A DNA stretch of 41,015 nucleotides from a virus. Taxonomy: Duplodnaviria; Heunggongvirae; Uroviricota; Caudoviricetes. The notes beneath the pieces were generated by a model. It saw nothing but the letters and a program-made list of their open reading frames with translations, had not been told where the DNA came from and searched no databases. The translations under genes were made by a program, and so were the position numbers. Within the stretch, counting starts at the first letter, position 1; each line of letters begins with the position of its first letter. The stretch lies in IMG/VR virus record IMGVR_UViG_2537561977_000014, one strand, 5' to 3'. This document shows, in pieces, positions 5,873 to 39,477 of this stretch.

Positions 5873-6140
5873 TTTAGTGGCCTCCTTAACTGTTTTAGTC
5901 TGCGATTACCAGTTAGTAGCTGGTGATCGGGTGTCAACTAGAGCCAGTTAAGAAGCTCCGGGCATATTCCCCTTACGGGTATTGTATTACGCCTCTCCAC
6001 CCGATCTTTGTACGGATGTGCCGTATTTCAGGCATAAAAAGCCGCAAGGCTATCGGGTGCGGATGACCGCTTAACTGTTTCTAGTGCGATCATCTTGCAA
6101 CAATGCAGGTTGCTTTGTCAATATCCCGGATATCAGAAAG

Positions 6141-6190: not shown

Positions 6191-6511
6191 CTAAACTCTG
6201 ATCAATCGTCTGAACAGTAACTGTTTAATATCCTGACGTTGGGAAAGAATCACGTGTGCAGTGATAATATCCTCCTCGACAGAGTACAGCACTCTGTAGC
6301 CTTCTGGTGTGTTGCACTCTCTGTATTTAGCCACGCCAAGCTTGAGCAACTCCGGGCATAACTGACATCCGGACGGGAATGCAGTAACTCTTGTTTCAAA
6401 TCGCTCAAGAATTTCTGCTATTACAGGGCGTGGGTCAATGTCGTTACTCCGGAGATGGTCGGCAATTTGCTCAAGGCTTGTTCTGGCGGTAAGTGTGTAT
6501 TCAACCTGCAT
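6191..6511 (-). CDS. Type II toxin, RelE/ParE superfamily
   Basis: ~106 aa with C-terminal ..EGYRVLYSVEEDIITAHVILSQRQD.. signature; immediately downstream of a Phd/YefM-like ORF. Confidence 0.7.
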   Translation of the reverse strand: MQVEYTLTARTSLEQIADHLRSNDIDPRPVIAEILERFETRVTAFPSGCQLCPELLKLGVAKYRECNTPEGYRVLYSVEEDIITAHVILSQRQDIKQLLFRRLIRV

Positions 6512-6532
6512 AGTTAACCTTAGTTGTTAAAG

Positions 6533-6751
6533 CTATCCAGCAACTGTGCTTTGAAAACACGCGACTTCAGACTTGTCGTTTTCTGAAATAGTGAGAAGTT
6601 TCAGTAACGCAATAGCGTTCTCGCGTTCCTGTTGCTGCTCATAGGATTCAATTACGTATGCAGGAACACCATTCTGCGTGACAAGAATGGGTTCCGCCAG
6701 GTCCAGTGAGGCTGCGTTTTTCTTGATGTAGCTGATAGTTTCTATTTTCAT
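6533..6751 (-). CDS. Type II antitoxin, Phd/YefM-like
   Basis: 72 aa; ..PILVTQNGVPAYVIESYEQQQE.. resembles Phd/YefM; 21 nt upstream of the toxin gene. Confidence 0.65.
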   Translation of the reverse strand: MKIETISYIKKNAASLDLAEPILVTQNGVPAYVIESYEQQQERENAIALLKLLTISENDKSEVACFQSTVAG

Positions 6752-10820: not shown

Positions 10821-11567
10821 ATGAAAAATATTGCGACAGGCGGCGTTCTGGAACGCATCCGCCGACTGACCCCGCCACATGTAACCGCCCCATTCAGAAC
10901 GGTAGCGGAGTGGCGCGAGTGGCAACTTGCTGAAGGCCAGAAACGTAGCGAGGAGATCAACCGCCTGAATCGCCAGTTGCGGGTGGAAAAAATTCTGAAT
11001 CGCTCAGGCATCCAGCCGTTGCACCGTAAATGCTCGTTTGCGAATTACCAGGTGCAGAACGACGGCCAGCGATACGCGTTAAGCCAGGCGAAATCCATCG
11101 CCGATGAACTGATGACCGGGTGTACAAATTTTGCGTTCAGCGGAAAACCTGGTACCGGGAAGAATCACTTAGCGGCAGCTATCGGGAATCGCCTGCTGAA
11201 AGACGGTCAGACAGTGATTGTGGTTACCGTGGCTGATGTTATGAGCGCCCTGCACGCCAGCTATGACGACGGGCAGTCAGGCGAAAAATTTTTGCGGGAG
11301 CTGTGCGAAGTGGATCTGCTGGTTCTTGATGAAATTGGCATTCAGCGCGAGACGAAAAACGAGCAGGTGGTGCTGCACCAGATTGTTGATCGCCGGACAG
11401 CGTCGATGCGCAGCGTGGGGATGCTGACAAACCTGAACTATGAGGTGATGAAAACATTGCTCGGCGAGCGGGTGATGGATCGCATGGTCATGAACGGCGG
11501 GCGCTGGGTGAATTTTAACTGGGAGAGCTGGCGTCCGAATGTTAGCCATTCGAGGGTTGTTAAGTAG
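10821..11567 (+). CDS. Replicative helicase loader, DnaC/IstB-like ATPase
   Basis: Walker A GKPGTGKNHL and Walker B LLVLDEIG; typical lambdoid P/DnaC position. Confidence 0.85.
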   Translation: MKNIATGGVLERIRRLTPPHVTAPFRTVAEWREWQLAEGQKRSEEINRLNRQLRVEKILNRSGIQPLHRKCSFANYQVQNDGQRYALSQAKSIADELMTGCTNFAFSGKPGTGKNHLAAAIGNRLLKDGQTVIVVTVADVMSALHASYDDGQSGEKFLRELCEVDLLVLDEIGIQRETKNEQVVLHQIVDRRTASMRSVGMLTNLNYEVMKTLLGERVMDRMVMNGGRWVNFNWESWRPNVSHSRVVK

Positions 11568-12565: not shown

Positions 12566-13252
12566 ATGACCCCAATAAACATATTTATGACAGTTGCTGA
12601 TTTCAAACGGCCCAAATTGGAGCTCCCAAACGGGGCAAACAAACTACTACTGCACTCTTGCTGTGCTCCATGTTCCGGTGAGGTGATGGAGGCGCTTCAG
12701 GCCTCGGGAATCGACTACACCATCTTTTTCTACAACCCGAACATTCATCCTCAGAAAGAGTATTTAATTCGTAAGGATGAGAATATTCGCTTTGCTGAAC
12801 AACACGGCGTGCCGTTTATTGATGCTGATTACGACACAGACAACTGGTTTGAACGAGCCAAAGGAATGGAATGGGAGCCCGAACGAGGGATCCGTTGCAC
12901 CATGTGTTTTGACATGCGTTTTGAGCGGACAGCGCTGTACGCCGCTGAAAATGGTTTCAGTGTGATCAGCAGTTCACTGGGCATTTCACGCTGGAAAAAT
13001 ATGCAGCAGGTTAACGACTGTGGGCGGCGAGCCGTCGCGCATTATCCGGGCATGGTGTACTGGGATTATAACTGGCGCAAGCAGGGCGGCTCGTCCCGTA
13101 TGATTGAAATCAGCAAGCGCGAAAAATTCTATCAGCAGGAATATTGTGGCTGTGTGTATTCTCTGCGCGATACCAATCTACACCGCAAATCTCAGGGACG
13201 CCCTCTTATCAAAATTGGTCAACTCCACTACGGTAAAGAAGAGAAGGAGTGA
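12566..13252 (+). CDS. Epoxyqueuosine reductase QueH-like (DUF208)
   Basis: Conserved [11 protein letters not shown] motif plus CTMCFDMR and EYCGCV Cys clusters typical of QueH/DUF208. Confidence 0.7.
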
Positions 13253-13479
13253 TTTTATGGGGCACCTTTCTGATTGATTTCATATTGGCGAGGTAAGTAG
13301 AATGACTGCGGGTGCTTGAGGCTATCTGCTTCAGGCATGAACACCAAAAGGCAGATAGAGAAAAGCCCCAGTTAACATTACGCGTCCGGCAAGACGCTTA
13401 ACATTAATCTGAGGCCAATTTCATGCTTTGCACATGTAGGTTAGCCTCTTACATGCCGAAAGGCAAGGAGAAGCAGGCT

Positions 13480-13635
13480 ATGAAGCAGCAAAAGGCGATG
13501 TTAATCGCCCTGATCGTCATCTGTTTAACCGTCATAGTGACGGCACTGGTAACGAGGAAAGACCTCTGTGAGGTACGAATCCGAACCGGCCAGACGGAGG
13601 TCGCTGTCTTCGTAGACTACGAATCCAGGAAGTAA
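13480..13635 (+). CDS. hok: Hok/Gef-family type I toxin (HokD/RelF-like)
   Basis: MKQQKAMLIALIVICLTVIVTALVTRKDLCEVRIRTGQTEVAVF.. matches the Hok family; GC-rich fold-back hairpins and terminator in 13640-13760. Confidence 0.8.
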   Translation: MKQQKAMLIALIVICLTVIVTALVTRKDLCEVRIRTGQTEVAVFVDYESRK

Positions 13636-14810: not shown

Positions 14811-15040
14811 TGGTGGATTTACTTAAAGCGGCGCGGGGGCAGATGTGCACCGTCAGAATTCCTGGCTACTGCAATCACGATCCGGAAACGTCTGTGCTGG
14901 CGCATTACCGACTGGCGGGAACGTGCGGAACAGCGATAAAGCCACACGATATGCAGGCAGCGATTGCCTGTAGCTCGTGCCACGATTTAATCGACGGGCG
15001 GGTAAAACCAGCGATTACACCAAAGAAGAATTACGCCTGA
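14810..15040 (+). CDS. DUF1364-like Cys-rich protein (YbcO-like), possibly frameshifted near the 3' end
   Basis: ..CTVRIPGYCNHDPETSVLAHYRLAGTCGTAIKPHDMQAAIACSSCHDLID..; a conserved-looking C-terminus (..EELRLMHAEGVFRTQEIWRKEGYL) continues in another frame. Confidence 0.5.
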   Translation: MVDLLKAARGQMCTVRIPGYCNHDPETSVLAHYRLAGTCGTAIKPHDMQAAIACSSCHDLIDGRVKPAITPKKNYA

Positions 15041-15839: not shown

Positions 15840-15916
15840 GGCCCTTTAGCTCAGTTGGTCAGAGCGAGCGACTCATAATCGCCAGGTCGCTGGTTCAAGT
15901 CCAGCAAGGGCCACCA
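15840..15916 (+). tRNA. tRNA with CAT anticodon, ileX/ileZ-like (tRNA-Ile2, or Met by anticodon)
   Basis: Cloverleaf folded by hand: acceptor GGCCCTT/AAGGGCC, anticodon loop CTCATAA, T-loop TTCAAGT, 3' CCA. Confidence 0.85.
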
Positions 15917-15917
15917 A

Positions 15918-15994
15918 CCACCACTAGCTCATCCGGATAGAGCATCAACCTTCTAAGTTGACGGTGCGAGGTTCGAGTCCTCGGTGGTGGGCCA
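15918..15994 (+). tRNA. tRNA-Arg (TCT)
   Basis: Acceptor CCACCAC/GTGGTGG, anticodon stem TCAAC/GTTGA, loop CTTCTAA, T-loop TTCGAGT, CCA. Confidence 0.85.
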
Positions 15995-15996
15995 GC

Positions 15997-16072
<76 letters not shown>

Positions 16073-16075
16073 TAT

Positions 16076-16150
<75 letters not shown>

Positions 16151-16657: not shown

Positions 16658-17154
16658 TGTCGCCATCATTACGCAAGGCTGTTGCAGTTGCTATTGGTGG
16701 CGGGGCTGTTGCTATAGCATCTGTGTTAATCACTGGCCCAAGTGGTAACGATGGTCTGGAAGGTGTCAGCTACATACCATACAAAGATATCATTGGTGTA
16801 TGGACTGTATGTCACGGACACACCGGAAAAGACATCATGCCTAGTAAAACGTATACCGAAGCAGAATGCAAAGCTCTCCTGAATAAAGACCTTGCCACTG
16901 TCGCCAGACAAATTAACCCGTACATCAAAGTCGATATACCGGAAACAACGCGCGGCGCTCTTTACTCGTTCGTTTACAACGTGGGCGCTGGCAATTTCAG
17001 AACATCGACGCTTCTTCGCAAAATAAACCAGGGCGATATCAAAGGCGCATGTGACCAGCTACGTCGCTGGACATATGCTGGCGGTAAGCAATGGAAAGGG
17101 CTGATGACCCGTCGTGAGATTGAGCGTGAAGTCTGTTTGTGGGGGCAGCAATGA
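16657..17154 (+). CDS. SAR endolysin (lysozyme-like, signal-anchor-release type)
   Basis: N-terminal Gly/Ala-rich weakly hydrophobic segment then lysozyme-like domain; start overlaps holin stop. Confidence 0.8.
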
Positions 17155-17621
17155 GCAGAGTCACCGCGATTATCTCCGCTCTGGTTATCTGCATCATCGT
17201 CTGCCTGTCATGGGCTGTTAATCATTACCGTGATAACGCCATTACCTACAAAGAGCAGCGCGACAAAAACGCAAGAGAACTGAAGCTGGCGAACGCAACC
17301 ATTACTGACATGCAGCAGCGCCAGCGTGCTGCTGATGCACTCGATGCTAAATACACGAAGGAGTTAGCCAATGCGAAAGCTGAAAATGATGCTCTTCGGC
17401 GCAAGCTTGATAATGGTGGTTGGGTGCTCGTCAAAGGAAAATGCCCTGTGCCATCCTCAGCCGAAACCTCCAGCGCCTCCGGCATGGGCAATGATGCCAC
17501 CGTCGAACTCTCTCCAGTTGCTGGACGAAACGTTCTCGGTATCCGGGACGGAATCATCAGCGACCAGACAGCATTGAGAATGCTTCAGGAGTACATCAGG
17601 ATCCAATGCCTTGGGGGGTAG
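17139..17621 (+). CDS. Rz (i-spanin)
   Basis: N-terminal TM segment then coiled-coil periplasmic domain; directly after endolysin. Confidence 0.75.
17371..17577 (+). CDS. Rz1 (o-spanin lipoprotein) embedded in the +1 frame of Rz
   Basis: Signal peptide with lipobox VVGC, proline-rich mature region; fully nested in Rz. Confidence 0.7.
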
Positions 17622-25322: not shown

Positions 25323-25549
25323 CAGCCATATGGCCCCCTGGCGGGGCCATTAAGGATGACCCGATGGCAAAAATAATGCAGTAATACACGTACATACCCC
25401 GTTTGTGCTCACGCTTCCCGACGGTTCGCGGCGCGAGTTTGTTAAAGGCCGTCATGCAGTGGAGGAAGACGTTGCCACGCACTGGTTCACTCGTGCGCAC
25501 GCGGAAGTATCCGTTGGCAAAGCCACAGACGCGCGTAACGAGGTAAAAA

Positions 25550-29025: not shown

Positions 29026-29478
29026 ATGGAATTCGAAATCAAAGGCGTGAAATATCGCGCGGCAAAACTCAGCGTTTTTGACCAGCTGAAAGTGACCCGC
29101 AAACTTCTGCCGGTGCTGGCAGGAATGATGTCAGATTTCGGGAGCATTCGCTCCCGTTTGCCTGCTGACGGCAAAATAGACACCGTGAAATTCGAGCAGT
29201 TAAAACCGGTGTTTGAAACCATGCTCCCGCGTATCGCTGAGGAACTGTCTTCCCTGACCGAAGATGACACCAGTGCAATTATTCATCCCTGTCTTGCGGT
29301 GGTGTCGCGGCGTCATATGGACGGATGGGTGCCGGTATTTACCCAGGGCGAACTGATGTTTGATGATATTGACCTGCTGGTCATGCTGCAGCTGGTGGCG
29401 CGGGTGGTCGCCGATTCGCTAGGAAATTTTTTGCAAGGACACCCTACCAAAGAGACGCCCATCCCGCCAGCGGAATAA
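29026..29478 (+). CDS. Tail assembly chaperone; -1 slippery site A_AAT_TTT at 29424-29430 would extend the product to 29675
   Basis: ORF upstream of tape measure; -1 frame stays open to 29675 (..FNSLPGGEDFILRPALAFHIDQKDLNSGAVDLCRIALLNDYLDMCEDNDVRVEKW..). Confidence 0.6.
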   Translation: MEFEIKGVKYRAAKLSVFDQLKVTRKLLPVLAGMMSDFGSIRSRLPADGKIDTVKFEQLKPVFETMLPRIAEELSSLTEDDTSAIIHPCLAVVSRRHMDGWVPVFTQGELMFDDIDLLVMLQLVARVVADSLGNFLQGHPTKETPIPPAE

Positions 29479-29655
29479 CCTTCAATAGCCTGCCGGGTGG
29501 TGAAGATTTTATTCTTCGTCCGGCGCTTGCCTTCCATATTGACCAGAAAGATCTTAACAGTGGTGCGGTAGATCTCTGTCGCATCGCGCTTCTTAATGAC
29601 TACCTTGATATGTGCGAGGACAACGATGTCCGGGTAGAAAAATGGAGAGAGGATA

Positions 29656-31608
29656 ATGAACGCCGAGACTATTAAAGATTTCCTCGTCTCGCTTGGCTTC
29701 AGTGTGGATGATGCAGGAGCGAAAAAGTTCGGTTCTGTCCTCGCCGGTACAACTGCAAATGTCATCAAAATGGGGCTGGCTGTTGAAGGAGCTGCGCTGT
29801 CCGTGGTGGCCTTCACGGCTAAGATCGCCTCCGGTCTGGATAATCTTTACTGGGCGTCACAGCGCACCGGCGCGACAGTCCAGGGAATTCAGTCTATTGG
29901 CTATGCGGTTTCGCAGGTTGGCGGCAGCGTGGACGCTGCGCGATCTTCTCTGGAAAGCCTCTCCCGGTTTATTCGTAACAATCCCGGTGCAGAAGGCTTT
30001 CTGAATCGCCTGGGCGTACAGACCCGTGATGCCAGCGGTAACATGCGTGACATGGCCGCTATTTTTACTGGTGTAGGCCAGAAGCTCAGCGGTATGCCGT
30101 ATTACCGGGCTAACCAGTATGCGCAGATGCTGGGCATTGACGAAAATACCCTTATGGCTATGCGTCGCGGAGTGGGGCAGTTCAGCGCTCAGTATTCAGA
30201 AATGGTGAAAGCGATCGGATTTAATGCCGATCAGGCTGCCTTATCGTCAAACCGGTTTATGACCTCGCTGAAATCGCTCGGTGAAATGGCCGGGATGGCG
30301 CGGGACAAAATCGGATCGAATCTTGCGGACGGACTGGCGGGGCAGATTGATAACCTGCGCAAAAAGATAATTGAAAATTTTCCCAAAATTGAAGTCACCA
30401 TCACAAAGGTCATAAAGGGGATCCTCTGGCTGGGTGAGATAGTCGGGCGGGGTGCATTCCGGATAGTCGATGGTGTCGGAGATATCATCGAGTGGTGGGG
30501 GAAACTGGATGCCGAAACGAAAACCCTGATAGAGGTTATCGGCGGTCTGGTTGTCGCCATGCGGATACTTAACTCTACTTTCTGGATGTCACCTATAGGG
30601 CTGATTACCGGTCTGATCGTGGCTCTCGGTCTCTTGTGGGAAGACTACAAAACATGGAAAGAAGGCGGTAACAGTCTTATCGACTGGGAAAAATGGCAAC
30701 CAGCAATAGATAAAGCGAAGGATGCGATCACCTAGCTTCGTGATCACCTTCTGGAACTAAAAGATGGTGTTGGCGGCTGGCAAAATGCACTGGAAATCCT
30801 CGGTACATTCATCGCGGGTGTCTGGGTATCCAAGGTTCTGGGGGCTTTCGGGAAAATATCAGGTTTGCTGGTCCCGCCGTGGTTAAAAGGCTGGATGGCT
30901 TATGCTGCGTATTTGTACTCTGATCGCGAAAATATTGGTGCCAGTGCGAAGTCATCCTGGGATTACACGAAACAAAATATTGGAGATTCATTGCGCTGGC
31001 TTGGCATTGATACCGATTTTGGTCGTAATCCTCATACCGTAAAAGGCGCAAATATTCAGTCAGATATTCCAGGTGCTGAGCCGGAACAACATGCGCAGTC
31101 TACGAAGCGTACTTTAGCCGATCGGAATAACAATCCAGGGAATATTCGCCCGGTGAGCGGTAAAGGGTTCCGGTTTTTCGAATCAGCTCTTGAGGGCTGG
31201 GAGGCGATGAAAAACCAGCTCATGCGTTACTTTACCGGGAAAACAACCGGACGGGCATTACAGACTATTCAGGATATTGTCAGTACCTGGGCCCCGGCAG
31301 GTGATAACAACGATCCGAAAAAGTATGCACAGGATGTTGCGAAATGGATGGGAGTATCACCGAATGCAATATTGAATCTTACAGATCCCCGGACTATGGG
31401 AGCATTGATGCAGTCGATGGCGCGCAAAGAAGGTTATTCAAACTGGAACAGCCCGCTGGCGTATCAGGCCGCCGCTGGCAACCTTAACCAGCAGACTGTT
31501 ATAAATGTTCATGGAGTTAACAACCCTCAGGAGGCGGCTAATCTGATCGCTGACAAGCAGGGGGCTGTAAATGCCAGGGCGGTACAGCAATTGAAAGGAC
31601 CTGCGTAA
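29656..31608 (+). pseudogene. Tail tape measure protein interrupted by an in-frame amber (TAG) codon at 30733-30735
   Basis: ORFs 29656-30735 and 30865-31608 are in the same frame, separated only by TAG; sense sequence resumes immediately (..DAIT*LRDHLLELKDGVGGWQNALEILG..) with no ATG/RBS for the distal part. Confidence 0.65.
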
Positions 31609-32258
31609 TGGACTTTTTATCTGTTTTACTGCAGCAGCGAACCCGCTCAATAGGAATCATTATTCCTGATGTGGTTATTACCGAAAAGCACACTGACGCC
31701 TTGGAAATTACGGAACATCCGGTTGAACAGCCCACGAATGCTGGTGCCAGTGGTGAGGGCGCTGGTTACATATCAGAACACGCATTCAGGCGCCCTTCTG
31801 AGGTTGTGATGGAAACCGGTTTTTCCGGAGGCGGATCGCTGCTTGATTTTGCCAGTAACCTGACTGCTACCAGTTTACTGGGGCTGAGCCCGAAAGAACT
31901 GTATCAGGAACTGCTTAACCTGCAGCGGAATCGTATTCCTTTCGATGTGACAACCGGCAAGCGTATTTACAACAATATGTTGATAAAAACGCTGGAGGTC
32001 ACGACCGATAAGAGTAGTGAAAATGTGCTTCTGGCGACACTTACCCTCAGGGAAGTAATTATTACCTCCACGCAGTCAGTCAGGGTTGCCCCGAAAAACA
32101 ATATGACCGAGGGAGTCGGAACGTCTGCTGTGCAGAATACAGGCACCAAAACAACGGTGCCGCCGAATAATTCCATTCTGAAATCGCTGCCACAGATGGC
32201 GCAAGAAGGTATCTCCACTGTTGATGGGTATTTGAGCAATTTATTTCTGGGAAGGTGA
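31608..32258 (+). CDS. Tail/baseplate protein (putative)
   Basis: ORF overlapping the tape-measure stop. Confidence 0.45.
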   Translation: MDFLSVLLQQRTRSIGIIIPDVVITEKHTDALEITEHPVEQPTNAGASGEGAGYISEHAFRRPSEVVMETGFSGGGSLLDFASNLTATSLLGLSPKELYQELLNLQRNRIPFDVTTGKRIYNNMLIKTLEVTTDKSSENVLLATLTLREVIITSTQSVRVAPKNNMTEGVGTSAVQNTGTKTTVPPNNSILKSLPQMAQEGISTVDGYLSNLFLGR

Positions 32259-34308: not shown

Positions 34309-34383
34309 GCTTTCTGGAGGCATATGAAGGTAATGCTGCCAACTTACTGATTTAGTGTATGATGGTGATTTTAAGGTGCTTGC

Positions 34384-34683
34384 GTGGCTTCCATTTCCAT
34401 CAGATGTCCTTCCTGCTCCGCTACTGAAGGCGTGGTGCGTAACGGCAAAAGCACTGCCGGACATCAGCGCTATCTCTGCTCTCATTGCCGTAAAACATGG
34501 CAACTACAGTTCACTTACACCGCCTCTCAGCCCGGTACGCACCAGAAAATCATTGATATGGCCATGAATGGCGTCGGATGTCGCGCCAGTGCACGCATTA
34601 TGGGCGTTGGCCTCAACACGGTTTTACGTCACTTAAAAACTCAGGCCGCAGTCGGTAACCTCGCGCATACAACCGGGCAGTGA
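34384..34683 (+). CDS. insA: IS1 InsA (zinc-finger DNA-binding protein); variant 3' end because the frameshift-window A-run is A5
   Basis: [85 protein letters not shown].. matches IS1 InsA; A-run at 34635-34639 has five A. Confidence 0.85.
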
Positions 34684-34684
34684 T

Positions 34685-35080
34685 GTGATTGTCTGCGCTG
34701 AAATGGACGAACAGTGGGGCTACGTCGGTGCTAAATCACGTCAGCGCTGGCTGTTTTACGCGTATGACAGGATACGGAGGACGGTTGTGGCGCACGTCTT
34801 CGGTGAACGCACTCTGGCCACACTGGAGCGTCTTCTGAGCCTGCTGTCGGCCTTTGAGGTCGTGGTATGGATGACGGATGGCTGGCCGCTGTATGAATCA
34901 CGCCTGAAGGGAAAGCTGCACGTTATCAGCAAGCGTTACACTCAGCGCATTGAGCGACATAATCTGAATCTGAGACAACATCTGGCAAGGCTGGGACGGA
35001 AGTCACTGTCGTTCTCAAAATCGGTGGAGCTGCATGACAAGGTCATCGGGCATTATCTGAACATAAAACACTATCAGTAA
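34685..35080 (+). CDS. insB: IS1 InsB (transposase catalytic part)
   Basis: Translation matches IS1 InsB; identical to the partial copy at the window start. Confidence 0.85.
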
Positions 35081-35096
35081 GTTGGAGTCATTACCG

Positions 35097-36884: not shown

Positions 36885-37447
36885 GTGGAAATTAAAAAAA
36901 TCATTAATCCCCGTTATACCGAAAGTGGCGCAGTAGACTGTGACGTTTTTTTGACGACAGGGACCAGGCAGTCCCCTACACAGCCACCGCTGATGATGTC
37001 GCTCCGACGGGTCAGCAAATCTGGCAGGAACTGCAAAGCGGCAAATGGGGTGAGATAGCCCCATTCACTGTGACACCAGAAATGCTGGAAGCGGCCAGAG
37101 AGGCCAGACGTCAGGAAATTGAAGCATGGCGCGCAGAACAGGAGGCGAAGCCGTTCACGTTTGAATGGAACGGTCGTATCTGGAATGCTGGTCCCGACTC
37201 ACTGGGCCGCCTGTCCCCGGTAGTCATGCTGGCAAAATCTGTCACAGCACAAACACATATGGCGTGGAGCGATGCCGATAATCAGCAGGTGAAACTGTCG
37301 ATGCCGGAACTGGAAGAACTGGCGGCAGCAATGGTGCAGGCGCAGGTCGATCGCAACGATGAGATTTATCGCCGTCAGCGGGAGATGAAAGAGGAGCTGA
37401 GCAGTCTGGATGATTTGGCTTCAATTCGGGCGTTTGACGTTAAGTAA
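36885..37447 (+). pseudogene. tfa: Tail fiber assembly protein (Tfa) with a frameshift in a T7 homopolymer (36946-36952)
   Basis: GTG 36885 after GAGGAA gives VEIKKIINPRYTESGAVDCDVF then shifts; family sequence continues in frame of ORF 37070-37447 (..YTATADDVAPTGQQIWQELQSGKWGEIAPFTVTPEMLEA..); one extra T would join them. Confidence 0.65.
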
Positions 37448-37626: not shown

Positions 37627-39342
37627 TTATGAATGGTGCAGTTGTGAGCCGTTTTCAGGCAATCGCAGGGCCAGTACCTCGTCAGTCAGCTGACGGTAAA
37701 TCTGCTGTTCAGTCTCACGCATCACCTGTGCACCGGCTTCCCTCTCCGCATCCGCATCACCGCTCAGACCTGATGCTTTCAGCCGGTCAGCCACCCTCTG
37801 AGGGTACTCATTCTCCAGCATCTCATATTTCTGCTCTTCTGCCAGCGCCCAGCGGTCAGCTTCCGTACGCTTCAGTACAGCATGCCATGGTCCCCAGAGG
37901 GAGAACCAGTCCGTAAATTCATTCTCTTCACGGCTTCTGACCATGGCTTCGGCAGTGCGGAGGTCATTTGCTGTCACTCCCGACACGCCATAGAAACGCA
38001 TTTCCTTCACGGCAGTGGAGAGCTGAAGTTTCTCTGCGAGCATGGTCTGGAAGGCCAGGTAGACTTCTATCTCATCCACAAAATGGAGAGTTCTGACTTT
38101 ATCCCGGGCAATGTCCTCCAGAATTTCGAGGCGGAACATTTCCCTGCCCAGGGAGAGCAGAGCGCCGGTATCATTATCGAAAAGGCCTTCTGATGCCTGA
38201 TGGACCAGGAGGGTTTTCCGGAGATTGTTCCATGTGAGCGCGACACGGTCCTCACAGCTCTCAGTGGCATCAGCAGCAACAGTGAAAGACTGCTGTCGAA
38301 GCTCCGCAGAGGCACTGAGTTTTTCCAGCCATGCAGCGACCTGTTCACGGAATCCGGAGGTATTGCGTGCAGAGACGGTATCGGAAAGGCGGTCAAGGAA
38401 CGCGGAAAAGGTGTTGGCATGCTCTTCATGTTCAAAAGCATGCCATATCTGTGATACATCAGATTGTTTGTTTTCCGGGAACCATGCTGTCACGGCATCA
38501 GCCAGGGGGCGATGGAGTGTATTCTGTTGTCCGTCACTCATGGAGAAGTAAATCCGTGGGCCGTGGTAGTCCGGTTGGGCGGTTTGTTGCGACAGAGACT
38601 CCCTGATCCGTGAGGACAGAGGATTGTCTTCGAGGATGATAGTGCAGGTCGGATCAAGGCTAAGTATATTTTCCGGAATGTGTGTGATGCGATTCTCGCG
38701 GCACCGGAAAAATATCTCGGTTTCCTCTGAGTGATGATTTCTTACAGGTACGGCTGGTAGGCTTTCCAGAAGATTAGTACTTACATCGAGCGCTTCCAGT
38801 GATTCAGGTAACTCAGGGAGAAATGTCAGCTGGTTATTTCTTACTGAGAGCACTTCCAGCGATGTAGGTAATTCAGGAAGCATGGTTAGCTGATTGTTAT
38901 CTGCATTAATATATTCCAGCAATGCAGGCAATTCAGGAAGCATGGTTAGTTGGTTGTTATCTACATCAAGATGTTTCAGAGATGCGGGTAATTCAGGAAG
39001 TGTTGACAGGTGATTGTCACAGGCGTCAAGGTATTCCAGCGATGCTGGCAATTCTGGTAATGATATTAGGGCATTCTGAGTAATTTCCAGAACAGTGATT
39101 TGAGGTGGTAAGTTGTCAGGTAGCGAGGACAGATTTAAACGATTCAGTTGAAGCTCACTGAACTGATTGATGAGACATTCTTTAAGTAGGGAGACCGCTT
39201 CATTCCGATTTTCACCGGGGAGCGCTTGTTTTTCCCATTTATCCCATGCTGAAAAGTAATCAGCATATGTACCGGAAATAGTGTTATAAAAAGAATTTTG
39301 GGACAATGAAAAGTTATTATTTATCGGTAACATGATGGACAT
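37627..39342 (-). CDS. ipaH: IpaH-family type III secretion effector, novel E3 ubiquitin ligase (N-terminal LRR domain, C-terminal NEL domain)
   Basis: 571 aa; N-terminus MSIMLPINNNFSLSQNSFYNTISGTYADYFSAWDKWEKQALPGENRNEAVSLLKECLINQFSELQLNRLNLSSLPDNLPPQITVLEIT; tandem 20-residue LxxLPxLPxxLxxLxxxxNx repeats; NEL signature ..AADATESCEDRVALTWNNL.. with catalytic Cys. Confidence 0.9.
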   Translation of the reverse strand: MSIMLPINNNFSLSQNSFYNTISGTYADYFSAWDKWEKQALPGENRNEAVSLLKECLINQFSELQLNRLNLSSLPDNLPPQITVLEITQNALISLPELPASLEYLDACDNHLSTLPELPASLKHLDVDNNQLTMLPELPALLEYINADNNQLTMLPELPTSLEVLSVRNNQLTFLPELPESLEALDVSTNLLESLPAVPVRNHHSEETEIFFRCRENRITHIPENILSLDPTCTIILEDNPLSSRIRESLSQQTAQPDYHGPRIYFSMSDGQQNTLHRPLADAVTAWFPENKQSDVSQIWHAFEHEEHANTFSAFLDRLSDTVSARNTSGFREQVAAWLEKLSASAELRQQSFTVAADATESCEDRVALTWNNLRKTLLVHQASEGLFDNDTGALLSLGREMFRLEILEDIARDKVRTLHFVDEIEVYLAFQTMLAEKLQLSTAVKEMRFYGVSGVTANDLRTAEAMVRSREENEFTDWFSLWGPWHAVLKRTEADRWALAEEQKYEMLENEYPQRVADRLKASGLSGDADAEREAGAQVMRETEQQIYRQLTDEVLALRLPENGSQLHHS

Positions 39343-39461: not shown

Positions 39462-39477
39462 CTGTAAAAAACGATAC
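39462..39477 (-). promoter_or_regulatory. MxiE-box-like motif with downstream TATAAT (39437-39442) in the ipaH promoter region
   Basis: Minus-strand GTATCGTTTTTTACAG versus remembered consensus GTATCGTTTTTTTANAG; ~120 nt upstream of the ipaH ATG; TATAAT ~20 nt downstream of the box. Confidence 0.55.

Follow-up and report, generated by a model that had tools for sequence, protein, structure and literature searches.

Our analysis of a 41,015-nucleotide stretch of viral DNA (IMG/VR record IMGVR_UViG_2537561977_000014, hereafter the window) revealed a tail tape-measure gene interrupted by an in-frame amber codon, and a G-to-A transition at position 30734 has very probably made this gene a pseudogene in a prophage that is no longer able to build a tail or to excise. 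Under this explanation, one recent transition would have changed Trp codon 360 (TGG) of a 650-codon gene to amber; translation would stop after 359 residues and no full-length tape measure would be made. The capacity to form particles would already have been lost, or have been in the course of being lost, one IS1 having deleted spike, baseplate and fibre genes and another having cut the integrase. With this capacity gone, there would have been no selection against the stop; we infer the order of the amber mutation relative to the IS1 events. Lambda forms no tails when gpH is present only as an amber fragment, and shortened tails arise only from in-frame deletions. Based upon this established knowledge of tape measures, the truncated product would be expected to fail in supporting tail assembly.

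The premature TAG is located at 30733-30735 (+), in the context GCG ATC ACC TAG CTT CGT as read from the window. When translated in one frame, positions 29656-31608 comprise 650 sense codons and one internal stop, flanked by the residues ...KAKDAIT and LRDHLLELKDG.... The proximal fragment (29656-30735, +) begins with ATG and consists of 359 codons and the premature TAG, and the distal remainder (30736-31608, +) continues in the same frame for 290 codons to the natural stop. In the list of open reading frames, the next long one in this frame is 30865-31608. GenBank carries the two pieces separately, the proximal one as EFZ60687.1, 'lytic transglycosylase, catalytic domain protein [E. coli LT-68]', and the distal one as EFZ60688.1, hypothetical protein ECLT68_0171, called at 30865-31608 with a TTG start. 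A preliminary description made from the sequence alone had proposed that an in-frame TAG splits a tape-measure gene, and this is borne out by the single 650-codon frame, which belongs to one family from end to end. As the presence of the TAG is a single-base fact that was checked against relatives, and not a statistical pattern, a test against chance does not apply.

The identification of the gene as a tape measure was also correct, as the PHROG 2276 profile ('tail length tape measure protein') covers both halves. The protein of an intact relative matches this profile across its full length (residues 1-648, profile positions 21-656, E = 1.1e-252), and the two pieces in the window occupy adjacent parts of the 673 profile positions, 21-399 for the proximal fragment (E = 1.4e-177) and 403-656 for the distal remainder. 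Two further tape-measure models scored below their cut-offs, PF10145 with 26.5 bits (cut-off 33.2; a weak match in the proximal fragment) and TIGR01760 with 20.8 (cut-off 28.8). The C-terminal 240 residues, which lie in the distal remainder, also match endolysin/transglycosylase-type profiles (phrog_873 endolysin and phrog_7182 tail injection transglycosylase), and the RefSeq name 'lytic transglycosylase catalytic' is due to this region; the distal part additionally shows a weak match to the endolysin of PDB 7q47 (E = 5e-5).

The genes are ordered as DUF3383 sheath-like protein, tube (PF11681), chaperone (PF21822), tape measure, Dit-like protein, Pam3_gp18-like plug and E217_gp41-like hub. The tail assembly chaperone gene lies directly upstream of the tape measure (29026-29478, +; PF21822 Phage_TAC_15, E = 4e-31) and has a canonical slippery heptamer, A_AAT_TTT, near its end (29424-29430), from which the -1 frame is open into a DUF6889 ORF (29475-29675) that overlaps the tape-measure start. 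RefSeq gives the 'DUF6889 family protein' a small gene of its own, which is probably a -1 frameshift extension of the chaperone (29424-29675, +) and the analogue of G/GT, rather than an independent gene, the frameshift itself being putative. Tape-measure genes are usually preceded by a G/GT-type arrangement of this kind, and this gene order supports the tape-measure assignment. Directly downstream is the gene for a Dit-like baseplate protein (31608-32258, +; PF21821, E = 4.8e-29), which places the interrupted gene between the chaperone with its extension and the Dit and hub genes.

The element is a myovirus-type prophage related to Salmonella phage SEN34 and to the vB_EcoM-606R2/689R2 phages. 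SEN34-like and vB_EcoM-606R2/689R2-like myovirus prophages of Enterobacteriaceae encode tape measures whose C-terminus is a lytic domain (PHROG 2276; e.g. WP_038341128.1). These share 99.7 % amino-acid identity with the interrupted gene across all 650 positions, and the prophages display the same order of sheath (DUF3383), tube, chaperone with -1 extension, tape measure, Dit-like protein, plug and hub. The copy in the window differs from these genes in having TAG rather than TGG at codon 360, and is thus truncated. Across the family, the C-terminal third of the tape measure is mosaic (alignment columns ~400-800): an endolysin-like module (PDB 7q47-like) is found in the LT-68 and RCIP0034 type, and an SLT-type transglycosylase module takes its place in Hafnia yong1, Klebsiella ST340 and EKP1. 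The mosaic break point falls just past the conserved EDYKTWKEGGKSLIDW block, near the mutated codon.

Comparison with relatives indicates that TGG is the sense codon at this site and that the stop is private to one lineage. NCBI contig ADUP01000017.1 (assembly GCA_000188815.2, Escherichia coli LT-68) matched the window with 100 % identity along 21,080 bases; a literature search for the LT-68 accession returned nothing. The closest complete genomes are those of E. coli FDAARGOS_943, FDAARGOS_944, VL40 and A41, and in FDAARGOS_943, FDAARGOS_944 and A41 RefSeq annotates a single uninterrupted CDS of 1953 bp at the same coordinates, with TGG (Trp) at the site. Base by base over 29400-31900 of the window (2501 bases), there were three differences from each of FDAARGOS_943 and FDAARGOS_944, and position 30734, which is A in the window and G in FDAARGOS_943, FDAARGOS_944 and A41, was the only base private to the window. 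A segment of 351 bases from the window had no exact match in the 109 complete E. coli genomes that carry it; the nearest were FDAARGOS_943 and FDAARGOS_944, each with one mismatch, at 30734. The exact TAG allele also had no match among species-representative genomes and is therefore absent from that collection; its only occurrences were in LT-68 and matching read sets.

The same base was G in all 32 IMG/VR viral contigs with identical flanks (a pattern scan with N at the site), and Trp occupied the site in each of the 120 best protein homologues, 119 of which are 650 aa long and one 678 aa. In an alignment, residue 360 follows just after the strongly conserved EDYKTWKEGGKSLIDW block. Trp360 is invariant only among close relatives (≥98 % identity), and because D, K, S or N takes its place in distant homologues, the residue does not appear to be functionally special and the site seems to be just a mutable TGG; the gene contains 19 TGG codons, each one transition away from a stop. 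A single ORF also runs across the site in the more distant phages vB_EcoM-689R2, Hafnia yong1, Klebsiella ST340-VIM1phi10.1 and RCIP0034, Elizabethkingia EKP1 and Acinetobacter Scipio. The preliminary description had left two readings of the split gene, an inactivating nonsense mutation or expression only with amber suppression, and had reasoned that homologues with two separate genes would speak against it. None of the close or distant phage homologues examined has a two-gene tape measure, and every intact homologue is one gene. The codon that near-identical relatives carry in place of TAG is TGG, within an uninterrupted gene of 650 aa, and this, together with the degradation of the prophage elsewhere, supports the first of these readings. 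The distal 290 codons have acquired no further private mutations; their intactness would fit a very recent mutation, and is neither an independent sign of relaxed selection nor proof that function has been lost.

The prophage has also suffered inactivating lesions in other essential genes. FDAARGOS_944 carries the same prophage between ybhA and pgl, with ipaHb. In the window, a complete IS1 with InsA, InsB and terminal inverted repeats (34330-35096, +) replaces ~4.3 kb of FDAARGOS_944, a stretch with the genes for the spike, a small baseplate protein, baseplate J/gp47, DUF2612 and the tail fibre, together with the opening 20 codons of the fibre-assembly gene. A tblastn search of the window gave no match for the spike, baseplate J or DUF2612 proteins. 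At the contig end, a second IS1, of which the window has the 3' part (1-423, +), abuts a remnant in which the excisionase is accompanied by no more of a lambda-type integrase than its arm-binding N-terminus (402-983, -); this integrase has been cut by IS1, and the window lacks its catalytic domain. Compared with FDAARGOS_944, one base is missing at 15004 (DUF1364 gene) and another at 36946 (DUF4376 gene), each within a homopolymer, and these deletions may be draft errors or real frameshifts. Related strains carry lesions of their own. In VL40 the same tape-measure gene has been broken independently by IS150 (VL40 segment 2860-4367), and in an NCTC strain (GCA_900450175.1) it has been broken by an IS3-family element (segment 1539-2908), with the codon still TGG; the latter insertion corresponds to ~30820-30824 of the window, only ~90 bases from the TAG. 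FDAARGOS_944 has a private frameshift in a different tail gene.

One alternative is that the gene now yields two polypeptides, an N-terminal product of 359 aa and a C-terminal muralytic piece that is reinitiated at TTG 30865 or ATG 30895, to which we assign a very small probability. The preliminary description had stated that the distal part has no ATG or ribosome-binding site of its own. This holds for the vicinity of the TAG, where no start codon or ribosome-binding site was found, but not for the distal part as a whole, since an in-frame TTG occurs 44 codons past the stop (30865) and an in-frame ATG 54 codons past it (30895), the latter with a weak AAAGG a few bases upstream. The C-terminal part on its own matches the endolysin/transglycosylase profiles, which would suit a separate muralytic product. 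However, the bases of both candidate starts are also present in intact relatives, and they would for this reason be unchanged internal codons of the gene rather than starts that have evolved. A two-gene layout is seen in no homologue and the tail module is incomplete. Furthermore, a tape measure must be one chain in order to be loaded by the chaperone and to span the tail tube, which a protein in two parts would not satisfy.

A related proposal, which we regard as just as improbable, is that the amber codon is tolerated, either as the host has co-opted a fragment or as a trickle of near-cognate readthrough at UAG-C retains a residual role. Were a fragment to have been co-opted, the likeliest candidate would be the reinitiated C-terminal muralytic piece.

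That the gene remains functional through amber suppression or programmed readthrough, by way of a suppressor tRNA of host or phage or a recoding signal, is less probable still, with hardly any weight in our assessment. The frame does stay open and protein-like for 290 codons past the TAG, and the base after the TAG is C; a C after the stop is a comparatively weak termination context. However, none of the relatives examined has the stop, which is therefore not a conserved recoding site, and its flanks are identical to those of the relatives with TGG, which argues that no signal has co-evolved with it. The 121 nt around and after the TAG (30715-30835) gave no indication of a stimulatory RNA structure (z = -1.1; 26 of 200 shuffles folded as well), and Rfam returned no match at the site; neither the downstream structure nor the context is that of a readthrough site. 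ARAGORN detected no suppressor tRNA with a CTA anticodon within the 41-kb window, the only tRNAs being those of a cluster at 15840-16150, Met/Ile(CAT), Arg(TCT), Thr(TGT) and Gly(TCC). TAG also serves as the terminator of other genes in the window, e.g. 10821-11567 and 17139-17621. The suppression reading of the preliminary description is thus unsupported by the unconserved stop, the tRNA content of the window and its use of TAG. Even a full-length product could not build a tail, as baseplate, spike and fibre genes have been deleted. The four-tRNA cluster lies upstream of the lysis genes, and its CAT tRNA is annotated as Ile in RefSeq relatives.

An error in the sequencing or assembly of the draft genome is an equally weak candidate for the origin of the TAG. 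In its favour, the draft holds at least one probable homopolymer-length error, at 25369, where the window has A5 and both FDAARGOS_944 and the assembly of run SRR13627069 have A6, which shifts the frame of a small STY1053-family gene. This A5 is probably a draft-assembly error that is unrelated to the TAG, and a G-to-A substitution is not an error of the homopolymer type. Over 14.7 kb, the A6 at 25369 is the sole difference between the SRR13627069 contig and the window. Five contigs were found to encode the identical 359-aa product, among them the assemblies of the separate runs SRR13627069 and SRR2994196, which have A at the same base as the window, as well as further similar contigs. The lesion, reproduced in these two assemblies, is accordingly genuine, and the occurrence of the TAG in independent read-based assemblies makes a sequencing artefact very unlikely.

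Reassignment of TAG to an amino acid was rejected, as the window has one in-frame TAG only, where a reassigned phage would have many, and uses TAG as a terminator: the 24 genes checked end in TAA (11), TGA (10) and TAG (3, one being the premature stop itself), and the remaining structural genes line up with intact, annotated counterparts in relatives, none of them having another in-frame stop.

The inactivation of the tape-measure gene by nonsense mutation, which we favour, has parallels in known systems. Laboratory amber mutants such as lambda Ham likewise owe the stop in an essential tail gene to TGG-to-TAG or CAG-to-TAG changes, with the frame open downstream. Lambda Ham-type mutants are conditional and are propagated on supE/supF hosts, whereas the LT-68 prophage has no evident suppressor and is inviable for other reasons. 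The phenomenon is an ordinary one, and the sequence is already public, annotated as two separate ORFs; EFZ60687.1 and EFZ60688.1 ought to be combined into a single entry that is marked as a tape-measure pseudogene. The same tail gene has been knocked out in three ways in sister strains, by a nonsense codon, by IS150 and by another IS3-family element. For a lone in-frame stop in a prophage gene, near-identical relatives provide the best first comparison.

A closer natural parallel is offered by the degraded 'ipaH islands' of Shigella and enteroinvasive E. coli, which likewise combine an intact ipaH beside tail-fibre remnants with IS1 copies, deletions and pseudogenes in morphogenesis genes, with CssrB nearby. 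No substantive difference from these islands was found, and LT-68 adds one more lineage-specific lesion. The cargo gene in the window is an intact ipaH (37627-39342, -) in which both domains of this type III secretion effector, the LRR and the NEL E3 ligase, are present. Its N-terminal part differs from ipaHb of FDAARGOS_944, the homology ending at 38406, and the Shigella sRNA CssrB is located beside it at 39470-39652 (+; Rfam RF02799, 151.6 bits). The content of the window looks Shigella- or EIEC-like; LT-68 is listed as ETEC (PMC4038620). Chromosomal copies of ipaH are commonly found amid prophages and pseudogenes (PMC9046306). The locus provides a small, clean example of how ipaH prophages become trapped in Shigella-like E. 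coli and decay lineage by lineage, with their virulence cargo intact.

Several small loci of the toxin-antitoxin or sRNA kind were recorded in the early region. These include a RalA sRNA (1079-1257; RF02694) and a hok/sok locus (13310-13635; RF01794) with a Hok/Gef ORF. Positions 6191-6751 (-), in a segment that is not common to FDAARGOS_944, encode a ParE-like toxin and a Phd/YefM-like antitoxin, and positions 5917-6006 (-) match sRNA-Xcc1 (RF02221). The window also contains a prophage-encoded QueH epoxyqueuosine reductase at 12566-13252.
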